63,498 nucleotides of DNA from Cirrosporium novae-zelandiae (lineage: Eukaryota): contig JAPETS010000073.1 of the NCBI GenBank assembly GCA_026023565.1, forward strand, positions 1 through 63,498. The letters run 5' to 3'. Below the pieces are notes generated by a model. It worked only from the letters and a program-made list of their open reading frames with translations, was not told the DNA's origin and ran no database searches. Each line of letters starts with the position of its first letter. The first letter of the stretch is position 1. Shown piece after piece: positions 381 through 30,000 of this stretch. Position numbers and translations under genes: made by a program.

Positions 381-1592
381 ATGATATATAGCCCAACTCT
401 TATTTCTATAATTGAGGTTTTATTAGTAACAGTCCCAGCCTTACTCTCTGTAGCGTTTGTAACTATTGCGGAAAGAAAAACAATGGCAAGTATGCAAAGA
501 AGACTAGGTCCTAATACGGTCGGATACTGAGGAATGTTACAAGCATTTGCAGATGCTTTAAAATTATTATTAAAGGAGTATATTTCCCCTGCACAAGCTA
601 ATTTAATTTTATTTTTCTTAGGTCCTATTATTACTTTAATTTTTTCACTGTTAGGGTATGCTGTAATACCCTATGGTCCTGGTTTAACTGCAGGAGATTT
701 AAACTTAGGTATACTCTATATGTTAGCTGTGTCTTCTTTATCGACCTATGGTATATTATTAGCCGGATGATCGGCTAATTCCAAATATGCTTTTTTAGGG
801 TCCTTAAGAAGTACAGCACAACTAATAAGTTATGAATTAATTTTAAGTTCAGCCATACTTCTAGTAATTTTATTAACTGGTAGCTTAAATTTAACTGTTA
901 ATATTGAAAGTCAAAAAACAGTTTGGTTTATAATACCTTTATTACCTATTTTTATTGTATTCTTTATAGGATCTGTAGCAGAAACTAATAGAGCTCCTTT
1001 TGATTTGGCCGAGGCTGAATCAGAGTTAGTTAGTGGATTTATGACAGAACATGCTGCGGTAATTTTTGTTTTTTTCTTTTTAGCTGAATATGCTAGTATT
1101 GTTCTTATTTGTACACTAACTAGTATTTTATTTCTTGGTGGTTATCTTTTGGATTTTTTTCCTTTATTGGTTATTGAGATTTATAACAACGTAGTGTATA
1201 ACCAGGTTAATCCTTACGATATTTATGCTTTATACCCATTTGATCTTCATTATTCCTTATATATCTTTGACTGCATGCGGAGCACAGTAGTAAATTCTTA
1301 TATAAATTTATTTAATAATTGTTTAATTGAAGGTACATTTTATAGTTTAATATTAGGAATTAAAGCTTGTGTTATGATTTTTGTATTTATTTGAACGAGA
1401 GCCTCATTCCCTCGTATCCGTTTTGACCAATTAATGTCTTTCTGTTGAACTGTTTTATTACCTTTAGTGATAGCCTTTATTGTATTAATTCCTTGTATTT
1501 CACACGGTTTTGAATCTATTCCTTCAAATGTTTCTTTATTCTTTGTACCCTTACTTATATTAAAGGATAAAAATGTTTCTTGCCCCCTCTAA
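381..1592 (+). CDS. nad1: NADH dehydrogenase subunit 1
   Basis: ATG at 381; motifs [48 protein letters not shown]; open with TGA=Trp to TAA at 1590-1592. Confidence 0.97.
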
Positions 1593-3881: not shown

Positions 3882-4109
<228 letters not shown>

Positions 4110-4219
4110 TTTTAAATTTAACAGATTGAAATTTAATTTTAGATTTAAGTAATTTCTTATTTACAGAGTATCCTTTAGACACAGAGCTTCTTTTAGCTCT
4201 GTGTTTACCGGTTGGTATA

Positions 4220-4354
4220 GAATCCATACGAAAGGCAGCTAGTGCTATAAATTCTGATATAAAGACTTTATGTAGACGAGAAAAATCCCAATTAGAAAAG
4301 GGTATAAATACTCCCTATAGAAATAAATACATGATAATTATTAAAAGACATTAA
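4220..4354 (+). pseudogene. C-terminal remnant of a GIY-YIG homing endonuclease (copy 1)
   Basis: ESIRKAASAINSDIKTLCRREKSQLEKGINTPYRNKYMIIIKRH*, paralogous to the copies at 4545 and near 5830. Confidence 0.8.
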
Positions 4355-4475
4355 TTAATCATGTTAATTATTAATAACACTTAGTTTAAATATGCTTAGG
4401 TTCGTTTAAGTACACTGGTTACTAAAGAAAAACAGTGGAGGAGTGGGAGGTGAGGAAACGAACCTAAGCATTCAT

Positions 4476-4517
4476 TTTGCTTTAATGATGGCATTCTTAT
4501 TATTATATGTGGCTTAA
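4476..4517 (+). pseudogene. Displaced atp9 3' end 1
   Basis: [13 protein letters not shown] with synonymous differences from atp9. Confidence 0.92.
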
Positions 4518-4544
4518 AAATAAATTTTTATGATTTAAATCTTA

Positions 4545-4780
4545 TAAAAACTGCAGCGGCTAATAGGGTAAAACCCCCTGTACCAGGCTTAGAGGTAGAA
4601 AATACAGACCTTGAAACTAAAGTAACATCTACATATGAATCCATACGAAAAGCAGCTAGTGCTATTAATTCGGATATAAAAACTTTATGTAGACGTGAAA
4701 AGTCTCAACTAGAAAAAGGTATTAATACACCCTATAGAAATAAATACATGATAGTTATTAAAAGAACATCTATTATTTAG
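4545..4780 (+). pseudogene. C-terminal remnant of a GIY-YIG homing endonuclease (copy 2)
   Basis: KTAAANRVKPPVPGLEVENTDLETKVTSTYESIRKAASAINSDIK... Confidence 0.8.
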
Positions 4781-4890
4781 AGTATGTTAGTTATTAATAG
4801 CACTTAGTTAAAATAGGCTTAGGTTGTTTAAGTACATTTATTATTAAAGAAAATCAGTGGAGGAGTGGGGGGCGAGGAAACAAACCTAAG

Positions 4891-4932
4891 CTTGCGGTGA
4901 TGATGGCTTTCTTATTATTATACGTTGCTTAG
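4891..4932 (+). pseudogene. Displaced atp9 3' end 2
   Basis: [13 protein letters not shown]. Confidence 0.9.
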
Positions 4933-4939
4933 TTACTGA

Positions 4940-6100
4940 TGAAGGCCTTGCCTTATTAAATTCTATAAGTCCCGCAATAGTTTATATAGGTTTAATCAAA
5001 AGATTAGCTATAAATTTAGAAACGTGTTATGTGTATGGTTCAAATTCTACTGAATATTCTGAAAACTGCAGTTTTATGAGTAAAACCGCTGCTTATATCC
5101 CCTTAGAAGCTTATTCACAAATTCTGCTCGTATGCAAATTAGGTATTAAGACATATAATGATCTATTAATACCCGAGCTTTGATTCGTGATGATAAGCCC
5201 CCGCCGGGTAGTTTTCGAGCCCCTTTTTTTTTAAGGGGCTAGAAAACTCGCGGGGGCTTGGGAAAGTTGGAGTTTATTGTTGATTTAAGAAAGTTAATGG
5301 TAAATTATATATAGGTAGTGGTAATCCCTTATATCTGAGATTAAGTGATTATTATCAGGACTGGTATTTATCCAAACGTTCTAATCTATACATAATTAGA
5401 GCTTTAAGTAAATACGGAAGGTGTAATTTTTGTCTTGTTATTTTAGAGTACACTACTGGCGATCTCCTAGCCCCAACCAAAGGTTGGGGCTTGGGTGTGA
5501 ACAAAAAGAATTGATTTACTTAAACCCGAGTATAATATTAATCCTGTAGCAGGTAGCTCTCTGGGGTATAAATACACTATAGAAAGTAAAGCTAAGCTTA
5601 AAAAGTTAGCCTAGCCCCTGGGGCTGGAGAAAGTACAGTGAAAAAGTTAAACAACTTATGAGTGAATCACGTAAAGGTGTAAATAACAAATTTTACTCCC
5701 TGCGGAGTAAAACTCACACTGAAGAATCTTTAATCCTTTTAAGAGCTGCAGCAAAAAATAGAAAAAATTTTACCAGTTCCAGGTTTTGAAGTAGAAATTA
5801 CATATTTAAACACTAAAATTACTACTACGTACGAATCTATATGGAAAGCAGCTAGTGCCATTAATTCAGATATTAAATCATTATGTAGGCTCCGTAATGT
5901 TTTTTATATCCCCCCGCTCCTCAGCATTACTGCTGAGGTAGCGGGGGGCCCGAACAAAAACCGCTCCGCAGAGAAAAATCCCAGTTAGAAAAGGGTATTA
6001 ACACACCTAGCCCCCTTTTTTCTCCAGCCCCTTTTTTAAGGGGCAAGGAGAAAACAAGGGGGCTAGAGGTAGATATATGAGAGTGTTTAAAAGATCACAA
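4940..6100 (+). pseudogene. Degenerate GIY-YIG homing endonuclease (copy 3) with several GC insertions
   Basis: [45 protein letters not shown] segments with frameshifts. Confidence 0.85.
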
Positions 6101-6102
6101 TA

Positions 6103-6123
6103 TTTGCGTTAATGATGGCATTC
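6103..6123 (+). pseudogene. Displaced atp9 3' end 3 (truncated)
   Basis: tttgcgttaatgatggcattc = FALMMAF. Confidence 0.75.
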
Positions 6124-6144
6124 TATACAAACATAGCACTCCTA

Positions 6145-6215
6145 TTCTTATTAGCTTAATGGTAGAGCAGGATACTTCTAATATCTAGATCCAGGTTCAA
6201 GTCCTGAATAAGAAT
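6145..6215 (+). tRNA. trnR: tRNA-Arg(TCT)
   Basis: Acceptor ttcttat/ataagaa, anticodon arm ggata-cttctaa-tatct. Confidence 0.93.
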
Positions 6216-6679: not shown

Positions 6680-8877
6680 ATGTTATATTTATTACTAATT
6701 ATCCCTGTTATAGCTCTATTGTTACTTGTTTCAGATGTATCCTTATTTACTAAAGGTCTAAAACTATTAAAAATAAAAAAGACTGTATTATCTTTTTTAA
6801 TTGCAGTTCTATTTTTTTCTTTTTTTTTTTTTTATTATGTATGATTCTAGTTTTGAGCAGTTTCAATTTGTTACAGATTGTTTAAATTTAAGCTTTTTAG
6901 GTTTTTTTTTAGGATTTGACGGTTTGTCTCTATATTTTTTTTTATTAACAGCTACAATAATGCCTATCGCTCTTATCTCTAATTGAATCTCTATAAGTGC
7001 AAAAGTAAAAATATTTCTTCTATTAATTTTATTACTTGAAATGTTATTATTGGCAGATTTTTTAGTTTTAGATATTTTATTGTTTTATATCTTCTTTGAA
7101 AGTATATTACCGCCTTTATTTTTACTAATTGGATTCTGAGGGTCTAAAAAGAGAGTAAGAGCTAGCTATTATCTGTTTTTATTTACATTATTCGGATCGT
7201 TATTTTTATTACTTTCTATTCTTACAATGTATTCTATCATGGGAACAACAGATTTCGAGGCACTATCTAAAATAAATTATGATGATGATACCCAAAATTG
7301 ATTATTTTGGGGTATTTTTATAGCTTTTGCTGTTAAAACACCGCTATACTTCTTAAATACTTGATTGTTAAAAGCGCACGTGGAATCACCTTTGATCGGA
7401 AGTGTGATATTAGCTGCTATCGTCTTAAAACTAAGTCTATATGGAATATATCGATTAATGTTGCCTTTATTATCTAGAGCTTCCTTAATTTTTTCATCTA
7501 TGGTATATGCTGTAAGTGTTGTTACTGTTTTCTTTGCTTCTTTTAGTACTTTAAGAACTATAGATGTAAAAGAGTTGATTGCTTATTCTTCTGTATGCCA
7601 TGCTGCTGTTTATTTAATGGGTAGTTTTAGTAACACAATTCAAGGAATAGAGGGTGCTATATCTTTAGGATTAGGTCATGGTTTTGTTTCATCTGGTCTT
7701 TTTATATCTGTAGGAGGTATTTTATATGATAGATCTCATACAAGATTGATAACTTATTATAGAGGTGTGGGGCAAATGATGCCTATATTTTCTATATTAT
7801 TCTTTATTCTTTGTTTAGCTAATTGTGGTACACCTTTAACATTTAACTTCCTAGGTGAATTTATGAGTCTTTATGGTTCTTTTGAAAGATTGCCTATTAT
7901 GGGTGCTTTAGCCTGTTCTTCTATTGTATTATCTGCAGCATACACTATGTATATGTTTAATAGAATTGTATTTGGTGGTGCTTTCTCTAAATACTTTAAT
8001 TTTAATATTCCTGACATTAATAAAAGAGAATTCTTTATAATATTACCTTTGGTTTTAGTAACTATATTATTTGGTATATATCCTGACCCTATTTTAAGTG
8101 GTTTACATTTCACTGTATCTCATCTAATTTATTCTTGCAGTTATCCTGGTGATGTTTCTCTCGCATTTCTACCCTTTATAATAAAATCTGCTTCTTGTAT
8201 GCGGAGCACAAAAAAAAAATTCAGATCACAAGCAGCAAAAGTCATAGATTACGTTAAAGGTTTTTTTTTTATTCATTTATCAACTATTATATATATTAGT
8301 TTCTTTATATATAGTTTTATAGAACTAACACAGACTATACTATTTTATTGTGATATTGCGACAGGTTTAATTACAATACCTCTTCTTACATATATGTATT
8401 TTTATAATAAAATAAAACAGTATTTCATTTCTTATTTTTTTTCTTTAGATATTGTTAAAATCTCTTTTATTATCTTTAAAGAAAATGGATTTGTTAAAGC
8501 ATTGCCAACTGTTTGTAGATATTTATATTATAGTATTTTAGATTTTATATATATTCATAGATATATTATAGTATTCTTATTTCTTGTTACTATTTATCGA
8601 ATTGTTTATTTTCCTGCGCAAGCGACTGATTTTTTTGTTTGGTTATTATTACTTTTAATTTGTATTTTATCTCTTTTTTCTGGGTTAATTTTATTAATTT
8701 ATGTTCTTTTTATTAACAAAAATTTAAAGAATAATCATCCTTTATTATATTTTGTTTGTATTATTACCTCTATATTTTTCTTAATTCTATCTGTTTTATT
8801 ATGATTCATATGTTTATCTTTACTAAAAAGAAAATTGAAATATCTTCTAAATGTAACCGGAGGAAATGCTCCAAATG

Positions 8878-8932
<55 letters not shown>

Positions 8933-9440
8933 TAATAATTTTGATTATTACCACAATGATCTTAATGGTCAAAATAATAATAATTCTAATTATAATCCCA
9001 ACAATAATAATAATAACAATAATAATAACCAGAATAATTTTACCGTGTCTTCAGAAACAACAGATAATCAAAGAAAATATAAATCGAGTGATGCTGACAG
9101 GCTTAGCGCCAAAAGATCTAAAGAAAGAGAACAAGCGAGTGATATGAACTGGTTAGAGGTGGCAACTTCTGGACTAAAGAGGGAGATTTTGGATGATGTA
9201 GTCGCAAGGATGGAAATCACCAGAAAGATGAAAAAAGAAATGGCGACGAGCGAAAGGTACCCTATTCCCAAGTGTAGTGATGATTTATTAAATCTTAAGC
9301 CAAGGGAGAAATTGGTTATCTTAGAGCATTTACAGACATTTCATCGGAATTCTGTGTATTTACGGCATGTAGCGGATCAAAGAAACTTCTGACGTGGTTT
9401 AAAGCTAACGGATGAATTTATAGATGTATTAAAAAAATAA
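6680..9440 (+). CDS. nad4: NADH dehydrogenase subunit 4 with an apparent frameshift in a T14 run (6820-6833) and a ~430-aa in-frame C-terminal extension
   Basis: LGFDGLSLYF, WLLKAHVESP, KELIAYSSVCH, NFLGEF; core ends near 8135 but the frame stays open (TGA=Trp) to TAA at 9438-9440. Confidence 0.93.
8878..9032 (+). repeat. (AAT)n microsatellites encoding poly-Asn in the nad4 extension
   Basis: About 20 consecutive AAT/AAC codons plus shorter runs. Confidence 0.95.
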
Positions 9441-10094
9441 TTGTTTTTTAACTAATAATGCTAAGAACATTATGTAATACTTTATTTCGGCTCCTTGTGA
9501 TACATTTAGATTGTAGGCAGTAAAAAAAAAGATATTTTTTTTTTTCTGCGTGCTTTTATCCCCCCCTGCGCTTCGCGCTCCAGCCCCCCACCTTTCCACG
9601 AGGATCACAGGCTGGCGGTAGTTTTTTCTTTTTTTTTTTCTTTTAGAAAACTAGGGGGGGGGGGGCTAGGATCACAGGCAGGTTCACAGTATTAAAGTGA
9701 TAGTTTCTATTCCTCTGGTTGCGGAGGACTCCGTAGGGAACCACCCTAGCCCCCCCCTAGCCACCTGCTCTTTTTTTTTCATTCCATGCTTTGTTTTCTC
9801 TCCACAAGCCAGGCTGAAAAACAGGGGTGGCTAGGGGGGGGGGGGGGCTTATTTAAGTGTGATAAGCATTACTCGGCGAAGCACACATTCTTATATAATC
9901 TTCAAATATAAAAAATATATATAATACAAAATAGATTCTATATATTTTTTTTTTACTTAGAAATAAGTGAAATGACCCGACAGTGTGAAGAGTGCAGGAA
10001 ACTTCTCAACAACTTATCTATGCTGAATAGCTTTTTATTTTAACTTAAAAGTTTTAGCTTTGCTCCGCCATGAAATTCTCTAGCTCCGCAACCA

Positions 10095-10166
10095 GAGACT
10101 TTAATTTAACGGTAAAATATGTGATTCTTAATCATCAGTATATGGGTTCAAATCCCGTAGGTCTTA
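10095..10166 (+). tRNA. trnK: tRNA-Lys(CTT), paralog of trnK(TTT) at 50253
   Basis: Nearly identical body; anticodon loop ttcttaa; substitutions keep the stems. Confidence 0.75.
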
Positions 10167-10499
10167 ATCTTTTTTTTTTTCGTTCGTGTTAGAGGGAGGT
10201 GTCTTAAAGTTATTATTAGTACTAAAAATCCTTAATTGTTTTGTAGCATTAGCCCCCCTATAAAAATCGGTGGTTCCTAGCTCCAGAGAGGCTGCTTGCT
10301 TGGCTCCGTCATCCAAAACAACCAAATTCTGGGATTTCAGTCCTCCCCTCTCTAACTGGCGGAGTTGGGGTTAGTCGGTCCCCCTCCCCCCCCTATGATA
10401 GGGATAAGGATAGTAACGTAAAGATTCCACTTGTTATGTCATCAAGTCTTAAGAAAAAGACTATTTCTATCTAGTCAATCAGAATTTCATTCACCGGGC

Positions 10500-10680
10500 A
10501 TTCCTTCTTCCCCCCCCCCCTGCTTCGCCTGCTTTCGCCTGCTTGCTAATTTTGTATTTCTGGGCCCCTGGCTCTGCAGCAAGCCCCCATTAGCCCCAAT
10601 TTTAATTGGGGGCTAGTGGGGGCTAGGGGGATATAAATAAAAACAAAAAATAAGGGACAGGCGAAGCAAGCAAATCTTGC
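10500..10680 (+). repeat. ~180-bp composite dispersed repeat (copy near 41075-41270, partial near 14570)
   Basis: Shared ccctgcttcgcctgctttcgcctgcttgctaattttg...gggacaggcgaagcaagcaaatcttgc. Confidence 0.85.
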
Positions 10681-11394
10681 AGGCCTTATGAAAAAAATTA
10701 GCCAGCAAAAAAAAAAAGGGAAGCCAACACGCAGGGTGCTTCGCCTAAAAGAATCCTGCGGCGTACAGAACTTTATAGAGGTAAAAACCTTTAGGTCTCT
10801 TTACCCTAACCCCCCCCCCTAACCCCCACCAGAGGTGGGGGGTTGGGGGGGGGGTTTCTGGATTTTATTATGATATATTGTATACAGTCTAATATAAGAC
10901 TTCTGGTTTTTTTTTTATTTAATAAGATGTCTGCTTATTTCTTAGTATGTTTTTTTTTATAAAAAAAAAACACAAGAAAAAGGAACGTTGCTTTTTTTTT
11001 TGCTCGCCTAGAAGCTAAGCCCCCCCCACCAAGCCCTAGCCCCCCAACCTTAGGTTGGGGGCTTATTCCTTAACTTCGTAGGATCTAGCAAAAAGAGATG
11101 CTGGGCTCCTGAACTTCGTAGGCTGTGCTAACTCCTTGCATGTGGTTGTTTTTTTTTCTTGCACTCCCTCCCTCCCCTCGGTACTCCGTACTCCGTAGAG
11201 GCGAGTCGAGCACAGGCTGCTTGTGCAATCCTTCGGCAGGAGTAAGAAAAAACACCACAGCACTCCGCAGGGAGCAAAAAAAAAAGGGCTTAAGAAAGAA
11301 AACACAGGGTTTTTTCTCCTTTAGTTTTTTCTAACAAACATCAAGAATAATAAATATTATATAAAAATAAAATTAAAAAAATTAAAAATAAAAA

Positions 11395-12618
11395 ATGAGA
11401 ATATTTAAAAGTCATCCTTTATTAAAAATGGTTAATTCATACTTAATAGATTCGTCACAACCTTCCAACATTAGTTATGCTTGAAATTTCGGTTCTCTAT
11501 TAGCATTTTGTTTGGGAATTCAGATAGTGACTGGAGTCACTTTAGCTATGCATTACAACCCTAGTGTATTAGAAGCGTTTAATTCAGTTGAGCATATTAT
11601 GCGAGATGTAAACTATGGGTGATTAATCCGTTATTTACACTCAAACACAGCCTCAGCTTTCTTTTTCTTAGTATATCTACACATCGGTAGAGGATTATAC
11701 TATGGATCATATAAAGCACCCAGAACTTTAGTTTGAACAATTGGAACTGTAATATTTATTTTAATGATAGGTACAGCTTTCCTGGGTTACGTTTTACCTT
11801 ATGGTCAAATGAGTTTATGAGGTGCTACTGTTATTACTAACCTTATGAGTGCGATACCTTGAGTTGGACAAGATATAGTTGAGTTTATCTGAGGTGGCTT
11901 TTCAGTTAATAACGCTACTTTAAATAGATTCTTTGCTTTACATTACCTATTACCTTTTATCTTGGCTGCTCTAGCTTTAATGCATTTAATAGCACTACAT
12001 GACAGTGCTGGGTCAGGGAATCCTTTAGGTGTTTCAGGTAATTACGATAGATTACCTTTTGCTCCTTATTTTCTTTTCAAAGATTTAATTACTATCTTTA
12101 TATTTATCTTAGCTTTATCTGGCTATGTTTTCTTTATGCCTAACGTTTTAGGTGATAGCGAAAATTACGTTATGGCTAACCCTATGCAAACTCCCGCAGC
12201 GATAGTTCCGGAGTGATATCTTTTACCTTTCTATGCCATATTACGTTCTATACCTAATAAATTATTAGGTGTTATTGCAATGTTTGCAGCAATCTTAATG
12301 TTATTAGTTATACCTTTTAGTGATTTATCTAGATCAAGAGGTATACAATTTAGACCATTAAGTAAAATAGCTTTTTGAATATTTGTTGCTAATTTCTTAG
12401 TTTTAATGATATTAGGGGCTAAACACGTAGAAACTCCATTTATAGAATTAGGACAAATATCTACTACTTATTATTTTGCACATTTTTTTATCATAATGCC
12501 CCTTATTAGTCTACTTGAAAATAGTTTAATGGAATTAGGGAGTTACCGTTTGATACGTTTAAATTTAAGTCAGAAAAAAAAACCAGATGCAAGACAAAAT
12601 CTAACACGGTGAACTTAG
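11395..12618 (+). CDS. cob: Apocytochrome b (no introns)
   Basis: [11 protein letters not shown] start; [27 protein letters not shown]; stop TAG at 12616-12618. Confidence 0.98.
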
Positions 12619-14252
12619 GCGAAGCCCTCAGTTTTAAGGATAAGGCAATAGATATTGGTTTTTATGTGCTATTGTTTTTAATATTAGGGGCTGCAATGAT
12701 TTTTCATATAGATGAGGTCCTCTTGCATATGATGCCGACAGGTAGCCAGAATGCTAAGAATCCAGGGGGTTCTACTACTCCATGGTATGATCCTAATTCA
12801 GAGACTAATTTTTCATGGTGTTATTCAAGGGAGTTTTATATAGGGGATTCTTTTTTTAATGATGGTTCTTCTACACCTGGGAATTTACCTGCTTCAGAAA
12901 ATTCTCTAGGGGATTCTACTAATCTAAGGAATTCTACTAATCCAAGGAATTTTGCTGTTCCGGGTAATTCTACTGCTCCAAGGAATTTTCTTACTTCAGG
13001 GTATTTTCCTACTTCAGGAAATTCACCTGTTCTAGGGAATTCTCCTATTTTAAGGTATTATCCTAATCCAATGAGTCCTACTACTCCAGGTAATTCTACT
13101 GTTCCAGGGAATTATATTCCTCAAAGGAATTCTCCTATTCTAAGAAATTTACCTAATTCAGGAAATTCTCCTACTCTAGAAAATTCTACTTTTTCAGGGT
13201 ATTATCCTAATCCTATGAATTCTACTGTTCCAGGTAATTCTACTGTTCCTGGGAATTATATTCCTCAAAGAAATTCTCCTATTCTAAGAAATTTACCTAA
13301 TTCAGGGTATTCTCCTACTCTAGGAAATTCTACTTTTTCAGGGTATAATACTAATCCTGGGAATTATATTCCTCAAAGAAATTCTCCTATTCTAAGAAAT
13401 TTACCTAATTCAGGGAATTCTCCTACTCTAGGAAATTCTACTTTTTCAGGGTATAATACTAATCCAGGTAATTATAATACTCAAAGGAATTCTCCTACTT
13501 TAGGGAATTCTACTATTCCAAGGTATAATAATAATCCAGGGTATTATCCTACTCAAATCAATTCTCCTACTCTAGGGAATTCTAGTCTTCCAAGGTATAA
13601 TACTAATCCTGGTAATTATAATATTCAAAGGAATTCTCCTACACTAGGGAATTCTGTTGTTCCAGGTAATTATACTAACCCTGGTAATTATACTACTCAA
13701 AGGAATTCTCCTACTCTAGGGAATTATGATGTTCCAAGATATAACACTAATCCAATGAATCCTACTATTCCTGGTAATTCTCCTACTCAAGGGAATTACA
13801 TTGCTCCTGGAAATTACCCTACACCAATGAATCCTAATATTCCAGGTAATTCTACTTCTCAAAGGAATTACACTTCACCAGAGTATATTTCTGCTCCATG
13901 GGATAATACTTTCCCAAGGACTTATATTACACCAGAGGAGTATAATCGAAGGTTAGTAGTGTCAGAATGAAAGCGTTCTATGCTTTATAATATTGGAGAG
14001 CGCTTAAGTATTATAAACGCAGAGGACGAAAAGAAGCCTTCATTCCCTGTTAGTACTTTAGGTGACACTCGTTTAGCCTTAAGTGACCAAGAAAAGGTAC
14101 TTGTAAAAGAACTTATGCTAAGAGAAAAAAAATATTTTGGCGGTGCAATTCGTCAATTAAATTCCGGACAAGGCGACAACTGACGTGTGGTTGTTAACAC
14201 TAAAAGATTACGGCAATTTTTAACAGAGCCTGCGCAAAATGTAGATAAGTAG
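12609..14252 (+). CDS. Orphan ORF (~547 aa): TM segment, N/S/P/T/G-rich repeats, C-terminal domain; overlaps the cob end in the -1 frame
   Basis: Track ORFs 12609..13970 and 13980..14183 join through TGA=Trp to TAG at 14250-14252; frame open from 12525; start uncertain. Confidence 0.75.
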
Positions 14253-14801
14253 TTTTTTCCAGGATTAGTTGCTTTACCTAGCTCCTTTTTCATTTCTTCT
14301 GCCTTATTTCCTCAACCCCCTTGTCTGATCTTCAGCCGCGACCCCTAAGATCTATATTATCTTTATTTCCCATAGATTTGTTATAACCTCCCCCCCGGGG
14401 CCATGGTCCTCTGCAGTATTGCAGAGGCCCATGGGCCTTTATCCCCCCCTTGCAGTACAAGTAGTAAAAAGACACTGCGGTATTTCGTTGTAGTTTGACG
14501 AAGAACTCTATAGATTTTTAAGTTTGTAACTAATATATGTACTTTTTAGATATATGAATGTGTATCACTTGTATTCCTTCTTTCCCCCCCCCAGCTTGCG
14601 CCTGCTTTCGCCTGCTCTTTTTTTTGCTTGCTTTCGCCTGCTCTTTTTTTTTGCTTGCTTGCGCCTGCAAAAAAAAAACAGTCTGTACCCCCCCCCAAAG
14701 CCCCCACTCTACGAGTGGGGGCTTGGACTGTTTTCTCTGTGGAGCGGTTTTTTATAAACACTAGGTAGGGGGCTTATTGAACTAAATCTTTTTTTTCAAG
14801 A

Positions 14802-15160
14802 TCATCCTTCTTTTTTGTTTTTTCTTGGTATGGAGCGCGCTATCCTCTCTTTGGGGGCCTAAAAAAAAAATCCTGACAATTAGGTCAGGAAGAATAAGAT
14901 GCTATTTTAGCTAGGATGTTACAAGAACAGGAGGAAGAGGAATTTATGACATGAAATCATATCCCTGCTTTAACACCCAAAGCAACAAAAGCCCGGCTGT
15001 TTTCTCTGCTGAGCGGTTTTTTATAAACACTAGGAGAAAACAAGGCGGGAGCTAGGAGGACAAACATAAAAACGACTCTGATGGCCCCCTTTTTTTTTTT
15101 TAATATAAAAGCCCCCAACCAAAGGTTGGGGGCTAGGGGGATATAGCAGGAGACGATTAG
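14802..15160 (+). pseudogene. Degraded tandem copy of the 15576..16217 ORF
   Basis: Matches ggagcgcgc, caggaagaa..gatgct..ttagctag..tgttacaaga and gcaggagacgattagtctttaaaaattgttgtc; has stops and GC insertions. Confidence 0.85.
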
Positions 15161-15328: not shown

Positions 15329-15464
15329 CCCTAGCCCCCAAAGCCCCCACTCTACGAGTGGGGGCTTGGACTGTTTTCTCCTTGCCCCTTAAAATAAAAA
15401 AAGGGGCTGGAGAAAACAAGGGGGCTTATAAAAGCCCCCAACCAAAGGTTGGGGGCTAGGGGGA
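15329..15464. mobile_element. Composite palindromic element; inverted copy near 32900-33036, partial copies near 40546 and 42720
   Basis: Modules agcccccactc...gagtgggggct, ttttctccttgcccc...ggggctggagaaaac and agcccccaaccaaaggttgggggct in the same order. Confidence 0.85.
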
Positions 15465-15575: not shown

Positions 15576-16217
15576 ATGCTAATAATGAATATATTTAATG
15601 TTAGAACTCCCTTAGGTTTATCTTTTACATATTGTGGTAGAAAATTTTCAACATCATCTTCTTTACTTGGAAAAGGTAAGGAGCGCGCCATAGACAATCT
15701 TCCTTTAGAGGAATCGGAGTCTATTAAAAAAACTCCTGAACAATTAGCTCAGGAAGAACATGATGCTCTTTTAGCTAGATTGTTACAAGAGGAGGAGGAA
15801 GAGGCCTTTATGACACGAGACTATAACCCTGATTTAACACCCAAACCATTAAAATCTAACGAGTTAGAAGGTTTTTATGACGAACATAAAGACAACTCTG
15901 ATCTTTATAATATAGATGACAAGGGTAGATTAATTAATTTTCCTTCCAGGAATACTTTTAAAGATTCTTCTCCTACAGAAGAAGGATCTTCTTCTGCTGA
16001 AGGATCTTCTTCTGCAGCTAAAGGTTCTTCTAGCGAGGGATCTTCTTCTGCAGCTAAAGGTTCTTCTAGCGAGGGATCTTCTTCTGCTGAAGGATCTTCT
16101 TCTGCAGCTAAAGGTTCTTCTAGCGAGGGTTCTTCCCTTTCAAAAGAAAGATCGTTAATAGACGATTATGCTGATGTTTCGACAGAATTTCCCGATTATA
16201 CAGCAGGAGACGATTAG
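15576..16217 (+). CDS. Orphan ORF213: basic/hydroxylated N-terminus, SSSAAKGSSSEG repeats, acidic C-terminal motif
   Basis: Intact ATG..TAG; ends SLIDDYADVSTEFPDYTAGDD. Confidence 0.75.
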   Translation: MLIMNIFNVRTPLGLSFTYCGRKFSTSSSLLGKGKERAIDNLPLEESESIKKTPEQLAQEEHDALLARLLQEEEEEAFMTRDYNPDLTPKPLKSNELEGFYDEHKDNSDLYNIDDKGRLINFPSRNTFKDSSPTEEGSSSAEGSSSAAKGSSSEGSSSAAKGSSSEGSSSAEGSSSAAKGSSSEGSSLSKERSLIDDYADVSTEFPDYTAGDD

Positions 16218-20334: not shown

Positions 20335-20732
20335 TGCATTTATTAAAAAAAAAAGGTTTAACGCACTTGGTCCCGCTTATAATAATCCAAGGTTTTTATT
20401 AGGGTCCCTACTTGCTGGCAGAAACTACTCTAATGTAGTCGAAATCCCTGAAAGATTAGCTTTAAACCACATGAATAAAAAGTAGTAGTATGTTTCTATC
20501 GTGCTGTACCAGAGTTTGAACTTTCTCCCGAAAAGGCCTTTAAAGCAGTAGCTCCGCTACTAAAAGCAAAAAGCTTGTTTTTCAGTCTCTGATCCGTATA
20601 TATTTGCGAACGTGGGAGAGGAATATTTGTTTATTAAAGCCCATGTACTACTTTTTATTAGTGTCTAAACTATCTAAGGTTGCATTCCTGAACTTCGTAG
20701 TACTCCGTAGAGAATTATTAGTTTGTTCGGTT

Positions 20733-20834
20733 TGTTCTGAAACCTGTGGAATCTTACATAGTTCTATGCCTATCGTTGTTGAGTCTGTTTCAATCGAGAA
20801 GTTTTTATCTTTATTAGCGGATCAAGAGGTATAA
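20733..20834 (+). pseudogene. Displaced cox2 3' end
   Basis: [33 protein letters not shown], synonymously diverged from cox2. Confidence 0.92.
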
Positions 20835-21229: not shown

Positions 21230-21376
21230 ATGCCACAATTAGTACCCTATTACTTTATAAACCAAGTTACATGTATTTATATCTTTCTAGCTTTTACAAT
21301 ATATATATTATCTAAATATTCCCTACCCCGATTTTTTCGATTGTTCTCTTTTCGGTTTCTTATGGGGCGAATTTAA
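21230..21376 (+). CDS. atp8: ATP synthase subunit 8
   Basis: 48 aa, MPQLVPYYFINQ...LSKYSLPRF. Confidence 0.95.
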   Translation: MPQLVPYYFINQVTCIYIFLAFTIYILSKYSLPRFFRLFSFRFLMGRI

Positions 21377-21664
21377 ACAAAAACTGAAAAACTTCTACAA
21401 GTTTCTATCTAATAGGATAGTAGTTTTTAAACAAAAGCTGAAAAACTTCTACAAGTTTCTATCTAATAGGATAGGAGTATTTAAACAAAAGCTGAAAAAC
21501 TTCTACAAGTTTCTATCTAATAGGATAGGAGTATTTAAACAAAAGCTGAAAAACTTCTACAAGTTTCTATCTAATAGGATAGGAGTATTTAAACAAAAAC
21601 TGAAAAACTTCTACAAGTTTCTATCTAATAGGATAGGAGTATTTAAACAAAAACTGAAAAACTT
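21372..21664 (+). repeat. 54-bp tandem repeat, about 5.4 copies (FKQKLKNFYKFLSNRIGV)
   Basis: tttaaacaaaagctgaaaaacttctacaagtttctatctaataggataggagta. Confidence 0.95.
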
Positions 21665-23546
21665 AGACAAATATCTAACTAATAAGCTAAAACATTGTAT
21701 ATGTCTTATTTGGGATTGTATACCTTCTTTTTTTATTCCTCGTTTACTTCCTTTTTTTTCTTGTCTACTGCGTAATATAAATACTGTAAAAGTTATATTA
21801 TTTATAGTGTTCTCTTTATATATGTGATATTGCTTTTTATATATAAAACCCACTCTATTTTTTTTCGTTGCTAAATCTTGAGTTAAGCTTTCAGAATATG
21901 TTGTTAATGCGGGTTGACAAGATTTTTTTGACTTTGACCATCCGGATTGGACAACAGGGAGTACACCAGGGAGTCCTAATAGTCCTACTCCTCCTAATAA
22001 TCCTACTCCTCCTAATAACAATTATCCTGTATTTGATCAAAACAATGATCAAAATGATCAATCTCAATTATACGGTGGTCAAAACAATCAGTTAAATAAT
22101 CAACACAATCCGTTAAATAATCCAAACAATAATCTGATTAATAATACGGACAATGCTCAAGACAATCAATCTCAATTAGATGGTGGTCAAAACTATCAGT
22201 TAAGTCAATCCCAACCGTTTAATTCAAACAATAATCAGTTTAATAATCAAAACAATGCTCAATACTATCCTTCTCAAATAAACGGTAGTCCAAACAATCG
22301 ATTAAGTCAAAACCAGCCGTTTATTTCAAACAATAATCAGTTTAATAATCAAAACAATGCTCAATATTATCCTCCTCAAAGAAACGGTAGTCCAAACAAT
22401 CGATTAAGTCAATTCCAACCGTTTATTTTTTCAGACAATAATCCGTTTTATCATCAAAATAATGCTCAATACTATCCGTCTCAAATAAACGGTAGTCCAA
22501 ACAATCAATTAAGTCAATCCCAACCGTTTATTTCAAACAATAATCCGTTTAATAATCAAAGCAATGCTCAATACTATCCTTCTCAAATAAACGGTAGTCC
22601 AAACAATCAATTAAGTCAAACCCAACCGTTTATTTCAAACAATAATCCGTTTAATAATCAAAACAATGCTCAATACTATCCTTCTCAAATAAACGGTAGT
22701 CCAAACAATCAATTAAGTCAATCCCAACCGTTTATTTCAAACAATAATCCGTTTAATAATCAAAACAATGCTCAATACTATCCGTCTCAAATAAACGGTA
22801 GTCCAAACAATCAATTAAGTCAATCCCAACCGTTTGATTCAAACAATAATCCGTTTAATAATCAAAACAATAATCCGTTAAACAACTCAAACAATTATCA
22901 AGCCAATAATCAAACCCAAATATACGATGGTCAAAATAATCAGTTAAATAATCAAGACAATCTATTTAATAATCAAAACAATAATCCGTTTAATAATCCA
23001 AACAATTATCAAGCTAATGATCAACCCCAATTAAACGATGGTCAAAATAATCAAAACAATAATCCGTTTAATAATCCAAACAATTATCAAGCTAATGATC
23101 AACCCCAATTAAACGAGGGTCAAAATAATCAGTTAAATGACCCTGTATCTCCGGTCCCTCAATATATACCGGAGGAAACTTTGCGAGCTATTAGTGGTGA
23201 AAGGACTCCTATAGAAAACTGAATATTCGAAAAAAGAGTTGGTAAAAAAAAAGTACCTTATTGTACTAATACTTTTCACGATGAACCCGTAAAAATATAC
23301 GTCAAAGAAGGGTGATGAGATACCTATCATCACACGGAACCAGCTCATCCGCTGCCACCTTGCAATGAAGTTATATATAAAGAAAGAGGGAATGGTTATG
23401 TTGTTTATGATCCACATACTCTTAATAAGAAAGAAGTCCCATTGTTTGTAAAACGAAACAACGGGGGGGAATATATACCTCTAAATGCTACAGTAAAACA
23501 ATCATCTTTACCAATTGTATTAAGACCAGGTAAAAGTAGTAAATAA
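21372..23546 (+). CDS. Orphan ORF (~725 codons, not in the ORF track): 18-aa repeats, hydrophobic segment, Q/N/Y/P-rich 34-aa repeats, C-terminal domain
   Basis: No TAA/TAG seen in this frame from 21291 to TAA at 23544-23546; first in-frame ATG at 21822; overlaps the atp8 stop in the +1 frame. Confidence 0.72.
22200..22872 (+). repeat. ~102-bp tandem repeat, about 6.5 copies (LSQSQPFISNNNPFNNQNNAQYYPSQINGSPNNQ)
   Basis: Recurrent caatactatccttctcaaataaacggtagtccaaacaat. Confidence 0.93.
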
Positions 23547-23797
23547 CTAATTTATTTCTTCTATATTAAGCCCCTTTAAAAAAAAAAGGGGCTTTATAAA
23601 TTTTGCTTTTCTTAGCAGAAAAAGAGTGCCCCCCCCCACCTTAAATTCGGTTCCTGAACTTCGTAGGCTGCTTTGCTCCCCCCCTTGCAGCAAGGGGGGG
23701 GGGGGGCGAAGCAGAATGCATGCTGATCCTCTACTACGGAGTCGAATGGGCACAACCAAAATAAAAGACACTCTTAAATAAAAAAAAAACAAAAAAA

Positions 23798-24067
23798 ATG
23801 AATTTATCTCTAATACTTTTTTTAATAGGAATCTTAGGGTTTGTATTAAATAGAAAAAATATAATTTTAATGCTTATTTCAATAGAAATAATGTTATTAG
23901 CTATTACATTTTTAATATTGGTAAGTTCACTTAGTTTTGATGATATATTAGGCCAAACATATGCTATATATATTCTAGCAATAGCTGGTGCCGAATCAGC
24001 TATAGGTTTAGGTATTCTAGTGGCTTTTTATAGATTAAGAGGAAGTATAACAATAGAATATAAATAA
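23798..24067 (+). CDS. nad4L: NADH dehydrogenase subunit 4L
   Basis: 89 aa, [18 protein letters not shown] overlap with nad5. Confidence 0.98.
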
Positions 24068-27000
24068 TGTATTTAACTTTAATTATTTTACCATTATTAG
24101 GATCAATAGTTTCCGGTTTTTTTGGAAGAAAAGTCGGAGTTAGCGGAGCACAATTAATTACAAGTAGTTCTGTAATTATAACAACATTTTTGGCAACTGT
24201 TGCTTTTTTCGAAGTAGGTTTAAATAACATACCTGTCTCAATTCAATTGTTTAGATGAGTTGATTCAGAGTCACTTAATGTCTTATGAGGTTTTCATTTC
24301 GATTCCTTAACAGTATCTATGTTAATACCTGTATTAATAGTTTCTTCTTTAGTACATATATATTCAATAGGATACATGGCTTCAGATCCTCACAATCAAA
24401 GATTTTTTAGTTACTTAAGTTTATTCACTTGATTTATGGTTATTCTTGTAACAGCTAACAATTATTTACTTATGTTTGTAGGTTGAGAAGGTGAACCAAA
24501 ACGCCTTAAATGGTTAAGCATGCCTAATAGCTTTAAATATTTAAGATATAAAACTAAAAAGAGTTGCGTTGTTTTCTCTCCGAGAAAACAAGCGCCAAAA
24601 TTTAAAAGATCTTTTTTTTCAAATGAATTAAAACCAGATCAAAGAATAGGAGCTCACAGTTTAGATATAATATCTATAATAATAGGTTCTTTATTTGGTA
24701 ATACATATATGGAAAAAAGAAAAAATGGTACAAGAATAGTATTTGAATTGTGTAATGATAATGTAGAGTATTTAATGTGATTACATAAAATTTTAGCCTT
24801 AAAAGGTTATTGTAGTTCTAAAAAGCCCAAATTATCTGTTAAGATAGCTAAAGACAATAAAGTCTTGTTTAAGTATTCTCTTAAAAGTTATACTTTTTCA
24901 AGCTTTAATTGATTATATGAGATCTATTACAAAGATAACATAAAAATAATTCCTCGTAACCTTGATAACTTTTTAACACCATTAGCTTTAGTTGTATGGT
25001 TTCTAAATGATGGTATAAATCTAGACAAAGAGAGTAAAAAGGTTTTCTTGTATAGAATAAGTAGTAATGATTTTGAATATTTATCTTGTCTTCTAAAAAA
25101 GAAATATAATCTAAATACTATAATTTCTTTCAAGGGCGAGGCTGAAAATAAAGGTAGTGCTATTAGTATAAAAAGTACTTCATATATTGCCTTTTCTAAA
25201 ATAGTAAAACCACATCTTTTACCTTCATTACATTACAAATTAAATAATGGACATAATAGATTATGCTTATCTAACAATACTTTTACTTACTCTACTCGGG
25301 CCCCCCTCCTCCTCAGCAGTAATGCTGAGGGGAGGGGGGATAATGTAAATGGTAAATTAAAGTTTAATACTAGACAGTATTCAATATATAAAGAAAACTC
25401 TAATGTAAAGTATACAGCTACATATAAAAAAGAATACTCTTTGAGTATAACTCAAAAAGAAGCTCTTATAGGAATTATTCTGGGAGATGGGTTTTTAGAA
25501 AGAAATAAAGCTACACATAATACAAGACTACGTGTAGAACAATCTTACCCTGAAAAAGAAGAATATTTAAAGAGTTTATTTACATTACTAGGGCCTTTAA
25601 CAGCTATGACTCCTGTTATTCTAACAAGAAAAGCAGATAAACGAACAGGTACAATAACTAAATCTTTGTATTTTAGAACATTAGCTATGCCTTGTTTAAA
25701 TTATTATTATGAATTGTTTTATAAGGAAAAAGTAAAGCATATTCCAAAAAACTTGGATGAATTATTAACTGCAAGAGGGTTAGCTTACTGAATAATGGAT
25801 GACGGAGGTAAATCAGTTTATAATCAAACTATTATTCATACTAGATCTTTTACTAAAGAAGATGTTATACTTGTTCAATACGTATTAAAAAAAAACTTTG
25901 GTTTAATAACTAGACTAGAAGAAAAGAAAAAAGACCAATGGGTAGTATTTATACCAGTTAAACAAGAAACAAAGCTTAAAGATATAGTAGGACCATTTAT
26001 GCATAAAAGTATGCTATATAAAGTATAGTAAATTAAGTGTATAAAAGCAAAACTAAAAAAAAAAAAATAAAGCTATTAGGATAATTTGCCATAGTTAATG
26101 ATTTATCGTTTATATTTAACCAATCAAAATAGTTTCTCATTTAATTAATTTTTTTTATGGTTATTAACTATAACTATAAATAGTTAATTAAAATAAAATG
26201 GGTCGCTGCTCTTTAGCAGCTACGTATTCCTTCGGCGAGAAATAAAGAATACTCTTCACGCTTGCTGTCCCCCCCATTCCCCAGCCCCCACTCGGCTCAA
26301 AGAGTGAGTGGGTGGTTTTCTCCTTGCCCCTTAAAATAAAAAAAGGGGCTGGAGAAAACTCATGGGGGGGAATTGGGGGGGGAGAAAGAGAATAAATATA
26401 GATTAATTTTTTTATGTATTATATATAAAAGGTTTAATCAATCATTAGCGACATCATTGAAAACGATCAACTAAATTAAGTTAATTTAAAGATCGTCGGT
26501 TATATTTTGAATCGCGATCGACTAGTACAATGGTGGGTGCCTGAGATGGTGCTTAATGCATAGTCAGAATATATATATTCTAAGCCCCTTTTTTTTTTGA
26601 AAAAAAGGGGCTTAGAGTATACCAGGGCCTTGAGTAAAACCTTCTAGGTATTAAAGGTACAGGAAATAAAAATTTAACTTTTAGTGTATAATATTTTATC
26701 TAGCCCGGGCCCCCCGCTACCTCAGCAGTAATGCTGAGGAGCGGGGGGGATATAAAAAAAAGGGCTTAGATACACTTATATTTTTATTTTTATATTTGGT
26801 TGGAGTTTGTTCATACCTTTTAATAAGTTTTTGATTTACTAGAATAGCTGCAAATCAAAGTTCCATCTCTGCTTTTTTAACAAATAGAGTGGGTGATTGC
26901 TTTTTAACTATAGGTATGTTTGCTATATTATGATCAGTTGGTAATTTAGATTATTCTACTGTTTTTTCATTAGCTCCATATGTTAATGAAAATCTTGTTA

Positions 27001-30000
27001 CTATTATAGGTATTTGCTTATTAATTGGTGCTATGGCTAAAAGTTCTCAAGTTGGATTACATGTCTGATTACCGATGGCGATGGAAGGTCCTACACCTGT
27101 TTCTGCATTAATACACGCCGCTACGATGGTAACAGCGGGTGTATATTTATTAATGCGTTCTTCACCTTTAATAGAATATAGTTCAACTGTATTAATTCTA
27201 TGTTTATGAATAGGAGCTATTACTACAGTATTTAGTTCTCTTATTGGTTTATTCCAACAAGATATTAAAAAAGTTATAGCTTATTCTACGATGAGCCAAT
27301 TAGGTATGATGGTTATTGCAGTAGGTTTATCATCATATAATATTGCTTTATTTCATTTAGTTAATCATGCATTTTGACCCTTTGTAAGTGCATGTAAAAC
27401 TCGACTATTTGCTGGAAAGTCCCGTAAATATCTTAAGACGGGAGAATCAGCAGGGAAGTACATCAGAGAACTTATTTTTAATCTATATTAGATATTTCTT
27501 ACGTACTCCTTCAACGATCAGACGCCGAGAATATTGTGGAGATGGGATATCAGAAAGATATATCTCTAGAATGTTATGATATGATCTAGACAAGTAAGTA
27601 ATTATTTGACTATTCGTATGCTTTGGTTCTTACCTTACTGTTTTTTTCATCGTGGATGTTGTAAGCCCCTTTTTTTTAAAAAAAAGGGGCTTTGAGCACT
27701 TCGTTGTTTATTTAATTTGTCTGCTTTACTTATATGTAGCGAAGATTAGGAGGTTACTTAAACCTATGTTAAATACACCTTTCTACCCTTTAGCTAGTAA
27801 TTCTAATAGGCTGGGCCCTTCCTTACGTGTAGTAAAAGGTTTAAACTCAAAACCAGGTCTTGTTTATACTAGATCGATTTCGCATAGATTGTATTCCACC
27901 TTGCGTAATAACGAGGATCATATCATATCTAATGGATTAAAGATACATTCTTCTTTTGCTTCAATATTAAAAAATGAATCAACAGGTGGTAAACTGCTTA
28001 CTAAATTAATATACCATATCCACGGACAAAATGTGTATAACATCCCTCTGTTTTTAACACCATTAGGGGTGAAAGCATCTCATGATTTAATAGAGATGAT
28101 AAACCTTTTACCTAAAGACTCTGGATCTGAGTTTAGGGGGGATAATATATTACTAGAATACTTGGATAAGCATCTTGAACCTGTTTTCAGATATAACATG
28201 GAATCATACTTGACAACCATTAGTCCCGTTAAAAAGTATAACATCCCTCTTCTTAACCAAAAAGTAGAAGATGGGGACTGTTCAGGAATTTACTGTTTTA
28301 TCCATACTACAGGTAAATACGGTATAGGTTCTGCTTTATCATGCCGTGACCGCCTGGTTGATCATATGAATAGTTTTAATGGCCACCGTCAAAGAACTTT
28401 CCTACATGACTGAATAATAGCCAATGGCGGCATTGAGTCTGTTAAATGGGCACCTGTTATAACATTTGATAATATTGTGCAAGAGTGATATAACAACAAT
28501 TACGCTTGTCCTTTAAGTCTTGGTGGAACTAAAATCTTACAGTGTTTTGGACAATATCCTGTTAGACTTTTAGAACAATGTCTGTACACTCAATTTAAAC
28601 CTTTTTTAAGCATGTTCGATGAACAACGCTCTATTATTTTTTTTAATATTACCTTTAAACCTGAAGAAATGTCATTAGGCTTGGATCATCTTCATGTGTT
28701 TCAAGCTTGAAGTGATAAGAAAAGAACAAAGCTAATAGCTGAGTCTCACTCTTTAAATTCTTTAGCAGATATATTAGGGTTAAGTATAGGTACGATTAAA
28801 AATAATATGAACTGGCATAAAGGCCTCTGTATTACAGATCGTGACACAGCTAAAAAGACTACTATCTATTTAGGTGAAAAAGGTGCACCGATTAGAACTC
28901 AAGCGATTGCTTCACAAAAATACCCTAAAGAGTTATATCCTAAAGTTGAGCTTATCAATAGAACACTTTCTGATTTAATTCCTGGGAGAATCCATGTTAT
29001 AAACATAGAGACGTTAGAGGATTTTGGTAACTACGCTAATCAGCGTGAACTTTGAATAAAATTAAACCCTAACTCTTTACAAGATTTTAACAGTCTAACT
29101 ACTTTAGCTAAACAGCGGATCTTTCTTGACAATAGGATAGGAAGATATCTTAATGTAGCCAAGCCTGGTGGCTTAACCACAGAGTTAGGTAACTTCTATT
29201 TTTGTAGACATCCGGATTTTTTACCTAATAATACTAAAACCGCTTCAGGGTTCTTTGGTGTAAACATAAAAACAGGTGTTGCTGAATATTTTGAAAATAA
29301 TTCTCAACCTAAAGACGATCGTCTTACTGTTAGAACACATAGAAAGAACAACACTGTCTCTAAAAGTGGGTTTAGATACATAGATAAAGACATATTTATT
29401 AAATATTTCCCTCTAGCTATACCTACGAAAGGGTCTACATATACTCTAAATAAAGAGCAACTAAGTAATCTGCCTGACAATAAATCAACATCTTAACAAT
29501 TATGTCCTTAAGATACGCAAGCTTTATATTTGCACGCATAAGAGACGGGGCTGTATTCTCTTCTCCTCCTCGGATCCTTCTCACAGCTGCCAGGCTCTTC
29601 TGCAAGATATTAGCAAGCATTTAAGGAGCGAGTAAAAGAAAGCTTGGGAACCTTTTAAGCTGATTACAAATAGTGGACGTTTACAAAGGGTTACTATTCT
29701 TAGGGGCAGGTGCGGTAATTCATGCAGTTGGTGATAACCAAGATTTTAGAAAATATGGTGGGTTAAGAGCATATTTACCTTTAACATATTCTGTTATGTT
29801 AATAGCTTCTCTTAGTTTAGTAGCTTTCCCTTTTATGACAGGGTTTTATTCTAAAGATCTAATATTAGAGTCTTCATATGGACAATTTTTTTTTTCTGGT
29901 ACTGTTGTATATTTTATAGCTACTATAGGTGCCATGTTTACTACCTTGTACTCAGTTAAAGTTTTATATTTAACGTTCTTAACTAACCCTAACGGACCTT

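Follow-up and report, generated by a model that had tools for sequence, protein, structure and literature searches.

The mitochondrial contig of the fungus Cirrosporium novae-zelandiae analysed here (JAPETS010000073.1; 63,498 nucleotides, referred to below as the window) carries long open reading frames (ORFs) at the 3' ends of two respiratory genes. The nad4 frame stays open for 434 codons past its normal end, and a frame of 547 codons (ORF547) overlaps the end of cob. Open stretches of this length are non-random and very unlikely to have arisen by chance. In our view, to which we attach a probability of about one half, they are weakly constrained hitch-hiker ORFs, that is, lineage-restricted coding regions which are translated through nad4 and cob and which are probably of common origin.

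C. novae-zelandiae is placed in the Xylobotryomycetes, described as an isolated ascomycete class (taxonomy record; PMC6712537). The window was translated using genetic code 4; a tRNA with a UCA anticodon is present at position 51010, and tryptophan in the core genes is encoded 36 times by TGA versus twice by TGG. TGA also stands for tryptophan inside both of the terminal segments discussed below, so that the nad4 extension and ORF547 read through only under the mitochondrial code. All of the genes in the window are carried by the plus strand. The features of the nad4–cob region are as follows.

6801–9440, plus strand: nad4 including its extension
6801–8135, plus strand: conserved nad4 core (Pfam Proton_antipo_M, 1e-80; first ATG at 6837)
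8136–8219, plus strand: stop-free linker of 28 codons, with ATG 8199 as the sole internal ATG and an in-frame run of ten A residues (A10) at 8210–8219
8220–8873, plus strand: transmembrane (TM)-rich part, about six helices predicted by hydropathy scan (nad4 residues 485–670)
8874–9077, plus strand: low-complexity poly-Asn spacer, an imperfect (AAT)n microsatellite (Tandem Repeats Finder, TRF: period 3, 51.7 copies, 8874–9028)
9138–9440, plus strand: nad4 tail, 100 residues (pI 9.1, predicted helical; stop TAA 9438–9440)
10095–10166, plus strand: tRNA-Lys(CUU) (ARAGORN), the sole RNA-processing landmark between the nad4 and cob units
11395–12618, plus strand: cob, intron-less, 407 residues
12574–12582, plus strand: run of nine A residues (A9) in the cob 3' extension, where the cob frame and the −1 frame of ORF547 are both open
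12609–14252, plus strand: ORF547
12609–12908, plus strand: N-terminal part of ORF547, one predicted TM helix at about 12654–12710
About 12905–13871, plus strand: tandem repeats of ORF547 rich in Asn, Ser, Pro and Thr, about 320 codons (TRF periods 36–144 nt, all multiples of 18 nt)
13932–14252, plus strand: ORF547 tail, 106 residues (pI 9.5, two TGA-Trp codons, stop TAG 14250–14252)

Extent and coding character of the two frames

Under code 4 the nad4 ORF encodes 879 residues, and both the Proton_antipo_M domain and the alignment to other fungal nad4 sequences end near residue 445 (nucleotide 8135). For comparison we used 80 nad4 loci from metagenomes (fungal, 66–74% identical, 947 kb in total), of which 72 were informative; two loci without a C-terminal match, five with partial matches and one running off its contig end were left out. 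In 70 of the 72 the stop codon lies 0–13 codons past the residue aligned to residue 445, and in the other two (L025 and L041) LAGLIDADG genes are attached in frame. Beyond the A10 run of the linker the +1 and −1 frames end within 11–14 codons. The (AAT)n tract in full spans 8874–9038. The initial annotation had described an in-frame overrun of about 430 residues with TM helices, poly-Asn and a tail of about 100 residues, and the anatomy found here is the same.

The cob product extends 31 residues beyond the conserved ...LLEN, compared with 9–19 residues in 30 of 32 other fungal loci, and ends at TAG 12616–12618. ORF547 starts at GTG 12609 in the −1 frame, overlapping the end of cob by 10 nt, and no tRNA or intron lies between the two. 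Its frame is already open from 12525, upstream of the GTG, and therefore spans the A9 run. The ORF that had been reported behind cob, with a TM segment, N/S/P/T repeats and a tail of about 100 residues, is thus recovered as ORF547.

The coding character of the frames is indicated first by their length. The nad4 linker and TM-rich part taken together (8136–8873, 246 codons) are open in none of 20,000 shuffles (Poisson estimate 5e-7). The terminal segments are open with P = 5e-4 for nad4 (9078–9437, 120 codons) and P = 3.5e-4 for ORF547 (13872–14249, 126 codons). A chance read-through would end after about 17 codons, and 6.8 stops would be expected in the 120-codon nad4 segment. The second indication is G+C content at codon positions 1, 2 and 3, which in the core genes is about 0.35/0.35/0.19 and in intergenic DNA about 0.40 at every position. 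The TM-rich part (0.27/0.25/0.11, p = 7e-5) and the ORF547 segment 13872–14249 (0.48/0.39/0.27, p = 0.003) are gene-like in this respect, and in codon-usage scores frame 0 is the best frame in every segment.

Other measurements weigh against the view that these are coding regions held by selection. In the nad4 tail the codon-position signature is missing and the values are near-intergenic (0.43/0.34/0.38, p = 0.34), and its codon-usage margin equals that of one of the intergenic controls. The repeat copies of ORF547 show 94, 88 and 81 differences at the three codon positions, with pN/pS values of 0.85–1.2; being equally variable at all codon positions, the repeats are not under amino-acid constraint. 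With these values, and with no G+C signature in the nad4 tail, purifying selection is not shown.

The same measurements favour an alternative in which the frames are evolutionary accidents, produced by loss of the nad4 stop and by expanding repeats and microsatellites, and yield no stable protein. In that case some other mechanism, such as slippage on the A10 run, RNA 3' processing or rapid degradation of the appendages, would provide functional Nad4 and Cob. (AAT)n and 18-nt repeats can hold a frame open mechanically, A runs of at least 9 nt point to the linkers as former 3' flanks, and no homologues were found in the searches made. Against this, the non-repeat parts of 246, 120 and 126 codons are open at P values from below 5e-5 to 5e-4, far beyond the average read-through expected, and the third codon position (GC3) is gene-like in both the TM-rich part and the ORF547 tail. 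We consider the accident explanation improbable.

A further alternative is an error of assembly or annotation, whether from a wrongly read A10 or A9 homopolymer, from a chimeric contig or from mitochondrial DNA copied into the nucleus. The assembly is labelled a metagenome-assembled genome and was annotated with a nuclear-type gene caller, and both junctions contain long A runs. Reads of one sequencing run cover 6801–14300 at very high depth without an indel in the ORFs, the junctions or the A runs, and the single indel listed over this interval is a minority CA insertion at 10644. This run is probably the source sample and hence gives no independent confirmation of the sequence. Two further runs, with reads of at least 80% likeness, cover only the nad4 core, the tRNA-Lys gene and the cob core, with zero cover on the appendages. 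An error in the A10 run would shorten the nad4 frame rather than lengthen it, and we give the artefact explanation very little credence.

Homing endonuclease genes (HEGs) are known from fusions to mitochondrial genes. The initial annotation stated that neither ORF has a LAGLIDADG or GIY-YIG motif, and Pfam searches at E ≤ 1 with full nad4, the 434-residue extension and ORF547 agree, returning no LAGLIDADG_1, LAGLIDADG_2, LAGLIDADG_3 or GIY-YIG domain. With the same library, homing-endonuclease domains are found in at least ten further ORFs of the window, as well as in L025 and L041. NCBIfam likewise gives no endonuclease domain in the appendages. When the last 87–90 residues of Nad4 and Cob were compared with the window using tblastn, no duplicated 3' end was found, each matching only itself. 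The nad4 extension and ORF547 also match only themselves across the whole window at E ≤ 1, with no borrowed gene fragments. The remark that both frames are intact among many decayed HEGs stands in part: the frames are intact and GIY-YIG fragments do lie at about 4000–6000, but at least nine LAGLIDADG ORFs in the window are intact as well.

We note that the stretch 4000–6200, downstream of atp9, contains several decayed GIY-YIG fragments, with one C-terminal peptide block repeated in different frames. A second copy of the coding end of cox2 lies at about 20700–20831, some 400 nt downstream of the cox2 stop, a pattern typical of past HEG-mediated 3'-end replacement.

The appendages could be imagined as decayed mobile elements, either HEGs fused to host 3' ends or ORFs derived from plasmids. 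This is suggested by the in-frame LAGLIDADG fusions at two of the 72 nad4 loci, the richness of the window in HEGs and the duplicated cox2 end. On the other side, the appendages contain no Pfam (E ≤ 1) or NCBIfam domain, no nad4 or cob 3' end is displaced, there is no likeness to HEGs in the window or in the 947 kb of fungal loci, and the TM-rich build is unlike that of HEGs. We regard a mobile origin as highly improbable. The proposal that these sequences colonise stop-codon regions is not borne out: nothing points to mobility, and neither a duplicated target nor further copies were found.

Two other candidate explanations were rejected. No intron behind nad4 or cob is found at Rfam gathering thresholds in 8000–15000. 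A hidden stop codon or change of code is discounted because all 62 sense codons are used in the 2,876 codons of the core genes, CGG and CGC being rare but present.

Likeness of the two tails

The common origin proposed for the two appendages depends on their terminal segments, the tails, which the initial annotation had aligned by eye. In Smith–Waterman alignment the pair scores 46 compared with 28.6 ± 5.0 for shuffled sequences, and 12 of 2,000 shuffles reach 46. The z values for local alignment are 4.3 with BLOSUM62 and BLOSUM45 and 5.3 with PAM250. The alignment contains 20 identical residues out of 95 and 41 positive positions, and 13 of the 20 identities are encoded by different codons. 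Among 1,709 natural windows, which are 106-residue pieces of fungal mitochondrial ORFs, the tails are each other's best non-self match with PAM250 (79, with the next at 63). With BLOSUM62 and BLOSUM45 the ORF547 tail is the top match of the nad4 tail, and the nad4 tail comes second when the ORF547 tail is the query. The tail pair also stands out alone among pairs of orphan segments, first in a set of 36 and then in one of 55, where it is the only pair with z > 3. In a single comparison, phmmer gives 7.6 bits for tail against tail (p = 2.5e-4), and the pairwise p values range overall from about 2.5e-4 to 6e-3. Single-sequence AlphaFold models of the tails place helix 1, helix 2 and a C-terminal helix at aligned positions.

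Those models are of low confidence, with a predicted local distance difference test score (pLDDT) of 46 for nad4 and 54 for ORF547, and they disagree between helix 2 and the last helix. The likeness is not detected by tblastn or blastp, and its z value is only 1.8 with BLOSUM80. The phmmer score lies at the noise ceiling of the method, since the best random matches in a database of 7,552 ORFs reach 7.4 bits. MAFFT and PAM250 alignments of the tails differ over the last third. After correction for 55 pairs and several matrices the likeness is only borderline. The shuffle-controlled alignment which had been put forward as a check therefore upholds the by-eye alignment with most matrices (z 4.3–5.3) and fails to do so with BLOSUM80; the pair beats shuffles and is reciprocally best with PAM250, but BLAST is blind to it. 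Likeness of the two junction regions after their KKK tract, also seen by eye, was rejected (z = 0.8).

The results against a relationship are those that would count for the alternative in which both ORFs are translated and their tails are unrelated, the likeness being a chance one between basic, helix-prone sequences that was noticed after many comparisons by eye. To the blank BLAST searches, the phmmer score close to the best random match, the BLOSUM80 value and the conflicting alignments can be added the dissimilarity of everything else: six TM helices compared with one, unlike spacers and dissimilar junctions. Set against this are the reciprocal best match among the 1,709 windows, the sole z > 3 in 55 pairs, and a collinear alignment of 95 residues which in both proteins lies at the extreme C-terminus of the same overall architecture. 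We hold chance likeness to be unlikely, although it deserves to be taken seriously. The evidence that the two tails are truly related is suggestive, and we lean towards a relationship.

No third member was found. Neither tblastn against the window nor tblastn against the 80 fungal mitochondrial loci (947 kb) gave a third copy, and a two-sequence hidden Markov model of the tails found none among 7,552 six-frame ORFs. The term family, as used in the initial annotation, is thus not established for what are two members only. An exhaustive phmmer search with the ORF547 tail against 1.84 billion representative proteins returned no true relative beyond a gene model from the same contig, which is a further point against the reading favoured here. 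Three matches were listed: P0002 is that gene model, in which a standard-code caller had spliced around the TGA codons, and P0003 and P0004, repeat proteins with four matched stretches each, were judged to be spurious. Word-index protein searches, each within a length band, were made with the regions of the ORF547 tail and of the nad4 extension and with the nad4 tail by itself, and gave nothing at E ≤ 0.01; the nad4 extension was searched in this way only, the exhaustive search covering the ORF547 tail alone.

No known family was recognized for the nad4 extension or ORF547 in Pfam or NCBIfam, and PDB sequence searches gave nothing below E = 0.3, so that the match to a characterized family which could have overturned the proposal did not appear in any of the three. 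The TM region of the nad4 extension scores 31.2 bits with Pfam PFF1_TM (PF22251), below the gathering cut-off of 32.3, and 25.8 bits with the AuxB model, for which the cut-off is 300. Because one region scores with two unrelated TM families, both below threshold, we read these matches as effects of composition. Foldseek searches with the low-confidence models of both tails gave nothing at E ≤ 0.001. The nad4 tail model gave no rows, and the ORF547 tail model (pLDDT 54) gave a best E of 1.6 against the PDB with probability ≤0.16 and TM-score ≤0.39; MarR, ArsR, H1 and other winged-helix chains recur among its weak rows. In the literature, bioRxiv and PDF supplements being outside the scope of the search, no description of these nad4- and cob-linked ORFs was found.

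Proposed expression and the A runs

If the hitch-hiker reading is correct, ribosomes already engaged in reading nad4 or cob would also make the appendages. A C-terminal fusion protein, possibly cleaved afterwards, would be the simplest outcome for nad4. For cob, ORF547 could be reached by re-initiation at GTG 12609, or else by slippage into the −1 frame at the A9 run during translation or transcription; as the −1 frame is open there, cob and ORF547 would become one reading frame. In both cases a membrane-anchored protein would result, in which TM helices are followed by a fast-evolving Asn-rich spacer and by an end domain of about 95 residues that is basic and for the most part helical. The two end domains probably share an origin, through an ancient internal duplication. 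Given how weakly their sequences are constrained, the appendages look more like hitch-hikers that are tolerated than like new subunits that are essential. The earlier description of both proteins as membrane-tethered holds as far as TM segments are predicted in each, but in ORF547 the tether needs a start upstream of ATG 12696. This is the first ATG of the frame and falls within the TM helix, with no ATG upstream of the helix, a point against the favoured reading.

A slip on the A10 run behind nad4 would give Nad4 of normal length. Long A runs have been documented elsewhere as sites of transcriptional slippage and −1 frameshifting (review, PMC5009743). The two junctions share with such systems an A9 run at which both frames are open and an A10 run at which slipping restores a normal Nad4. 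They differ in that no stimulatory structure was found after the A9 run (12583–12680, fold −16.2 kcal/mol, z = +0.42, with 124 of 200 shuffles as good), and in that A runs are common in the non-coding DNA of this genome. Transcriptional slippage would need no downstream structure. No variants in A-run length were seen in the DNA reads of the deeply sequenced run.

A runs of at least 9 nt number 45 in the window; almost all are non-coding and they often lie just 3' of genes. Runs of 9–11 nt are found within about 10–75 nt of the ends of cox2, ORF579 and nad6 (20345–20354, 23578–23587 and 42641–42651, respectively), and the A10 and A9 runs lie directly beyond the conserved cores of nad4 and cob; A runs may be a feature of 3' flanks in this genome. 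Given that they are typical of intergenic DNA and 3' flanks, the linkers may once have been 3' flanks, turned into coding sequence by loss of the nad4 stop.

A bolder proposal is that the appendages form a new functional membrane-anchored family dosed by homopolymer slippage. The A10 run would give the fusion by default and plain Nad4 on slipping; the A9 run would give plain Cob by default and the fusion on a −1 slip. On this view a basic domain of about 95 residues, which might bind nucleic acid, would be present on a fixed share of the subunits of complexes I and III. We regard this proposal as very doubtful.

Other orphan frames and known systems

The other genes and frames of the window that are relevant here are as follows.

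381–1592, plus strand: nad1
3885–4106, plus strand: atp9
15576–16217, plus strand: ORF213
Ending at 20334, plus strand: cox2 with introns
21807–23546, plus strand: ORF579
23795–24064, plus strand: nad4L
24067–31439, plus strand: nad5
31836–32609, plus strand: atp6
33698–34378, plus strand: ORF226
Elsewhere in the window, plus strand: rns, nad6, cox3, and rnl with rps3

ORF213 and ORF226 share an acidic C-terminal motif of 21 residues (Smith–Waterman 51 compared with 18 ± 3.9, z = 8.4, 0 of 5,000 shuffles). Reciprocal tblastn gives E = 0.003, and both have presequence-like N-termini and strong gene-like GC3. Orphan paralogy therefore does occur in this genome, and as judged from their sequences these two constitute a second paralogous orphan pair, clearer than the nad4 and cob tails.

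ORF579, downstream of cox2, has a three-part layout like that of ORF547, with a hydrophobic N-terminus and about 360 codons of N/Q/P-rich repeats (102-nt unit, eight copies). Its unique tail of 138 residues is strongly coding (0.50/0.38/0.21 at the three codon positions) and unlike either the nad4 or the ORF547 tail. Directly upstream of it is a 54-nt tandem repeat (21371–21684, 5.8 copies, 96% identity). nad5 has an in-frame C-terminal extension of about 228 residues past NADH5_C (30753–31439); this acidic stretch (pI 4.6) gives a stronger coding signature than any other orphan segment (GC3 0.17, p = 7e-8), and none of 20,000 shuffles leaves it open.

Besides the tRNA-Lys with a CUU anticodon at 10095–10166, ARAGORN reports one with a UUU anticodon at 50253, and also a tRNA-Ile with a UAU anticodon at 39927–39998. 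A GC-rich, partly palindromic repeat of about 39 bp occurs in both orientations at intergenic positions 1679–1717, 14692–14724, 15329–15367, 32996–33034, 40606–40640 and 42725–42763.

If the appendages are translated, large additional domains, both membrane and soluble, would be part of Nad4 and perhaps of Cob in this fungus. This would bear on the origin of new mitochondrial proteins and on their expression where a genome has no free-standing promoters or ribosome-binding sites, as well as on the amount of added sequence that core subunits in complexes I and III can tolerate. With one genome and a suggestive paralogy, we present the two frames as a candidate for follow-up rather than as a discovery.

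The closest known systems are HEG ORFs fused in frame to the 3' end of a mitochondrial gene or to an upstream exon, which gain expression in this way, a process termed 'core creep' (PMC10448965). The frames described here share with them the in-frame joining of an ORF and the use of host translation signals, and the nad4 3' end is itself a known site of such fusions, as in L025 and L041. Unlike those fusions, they show neither an endonuclease domain nor a duplicate of the host 3' end, nothing suggests that they are mobile, and the passenger, for which no relatives were found, consists of TM, low-complexity and basic-tail parts.

A second comparison is with fused neighbouring genes. cox1 and cox2 form one ORF in Acanthamoeba, Dictyostelium and Stemphylium, and the Acanthamoeba fusion is reported to yield two products (PMC5626475). 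These cases and ours have in common that no stop codon separates a respiratory gene from the coding region behind it, and separate products would still be possible, but the downstream partner here is an orphan and not a standard gene. Two of the metagenome loci are of interest in this respect. In L048 (15074–16876) cob reads in frame through a linker of 75–80 residues into cox1 (Pfam COX1, 1.5e-151). In L047 (6986–7480) cob has an orphan extension of 165 residues, in which a TM-like hydrophobic stretch was recognized by eye and the tail resembles a coiled coil. Compared with the orphan segments of the window, the L047 extension gave no significant match to either tail; it came closest to the nad5 extension, at z = 3.4 and under PAM250 alone.

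The ORFs associated with cytoplasmic male sterility (CMS) in plants are lineage-specific mitochondrial membrane-protein ORFs which share the expression of an essential gene. They are chimeras with pieces of known mitochondrial genes, and they are usually upstream of, or co-transcribed with, the essential gene. The present frames resemble them in being lineage-specific with predicted TM helices (about six in the nad4 extension, and one in ORF547 provided that reading starts upstream of 12696), and differ from them in that no borrowed mitochondrial gene fragments were found by tblastn against the window. Co-transcription with nad4 or cob would fit the finding that neither a tRNA nor an intron separates host gene and appendage. 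If the appendages are translated, the idea of an ORF that rides on an essential gene would extend from HEGs and plant CMS ORFs to a non-nuclease orphan of an isolated ascomycete class.

Finally, non-conserved ORFs of unknown function have been described in fungal mitogenomes (PMC3434094; PMC4570212). Like those ORFs, which are common in large, repeat-rich fungal mitogenomes, the nad4 extension and ORF547 have no homologues and no domains. They differ in being continuous with respiratory genes, unusually long (434 and 547 codons) and possibly paralogous. The new elements relative to all of these systems are a non-nuclease passenger composed of TM segment, spacer and tail, its presence behind two different respiratory genes, and the possible paralogy of the two copies.

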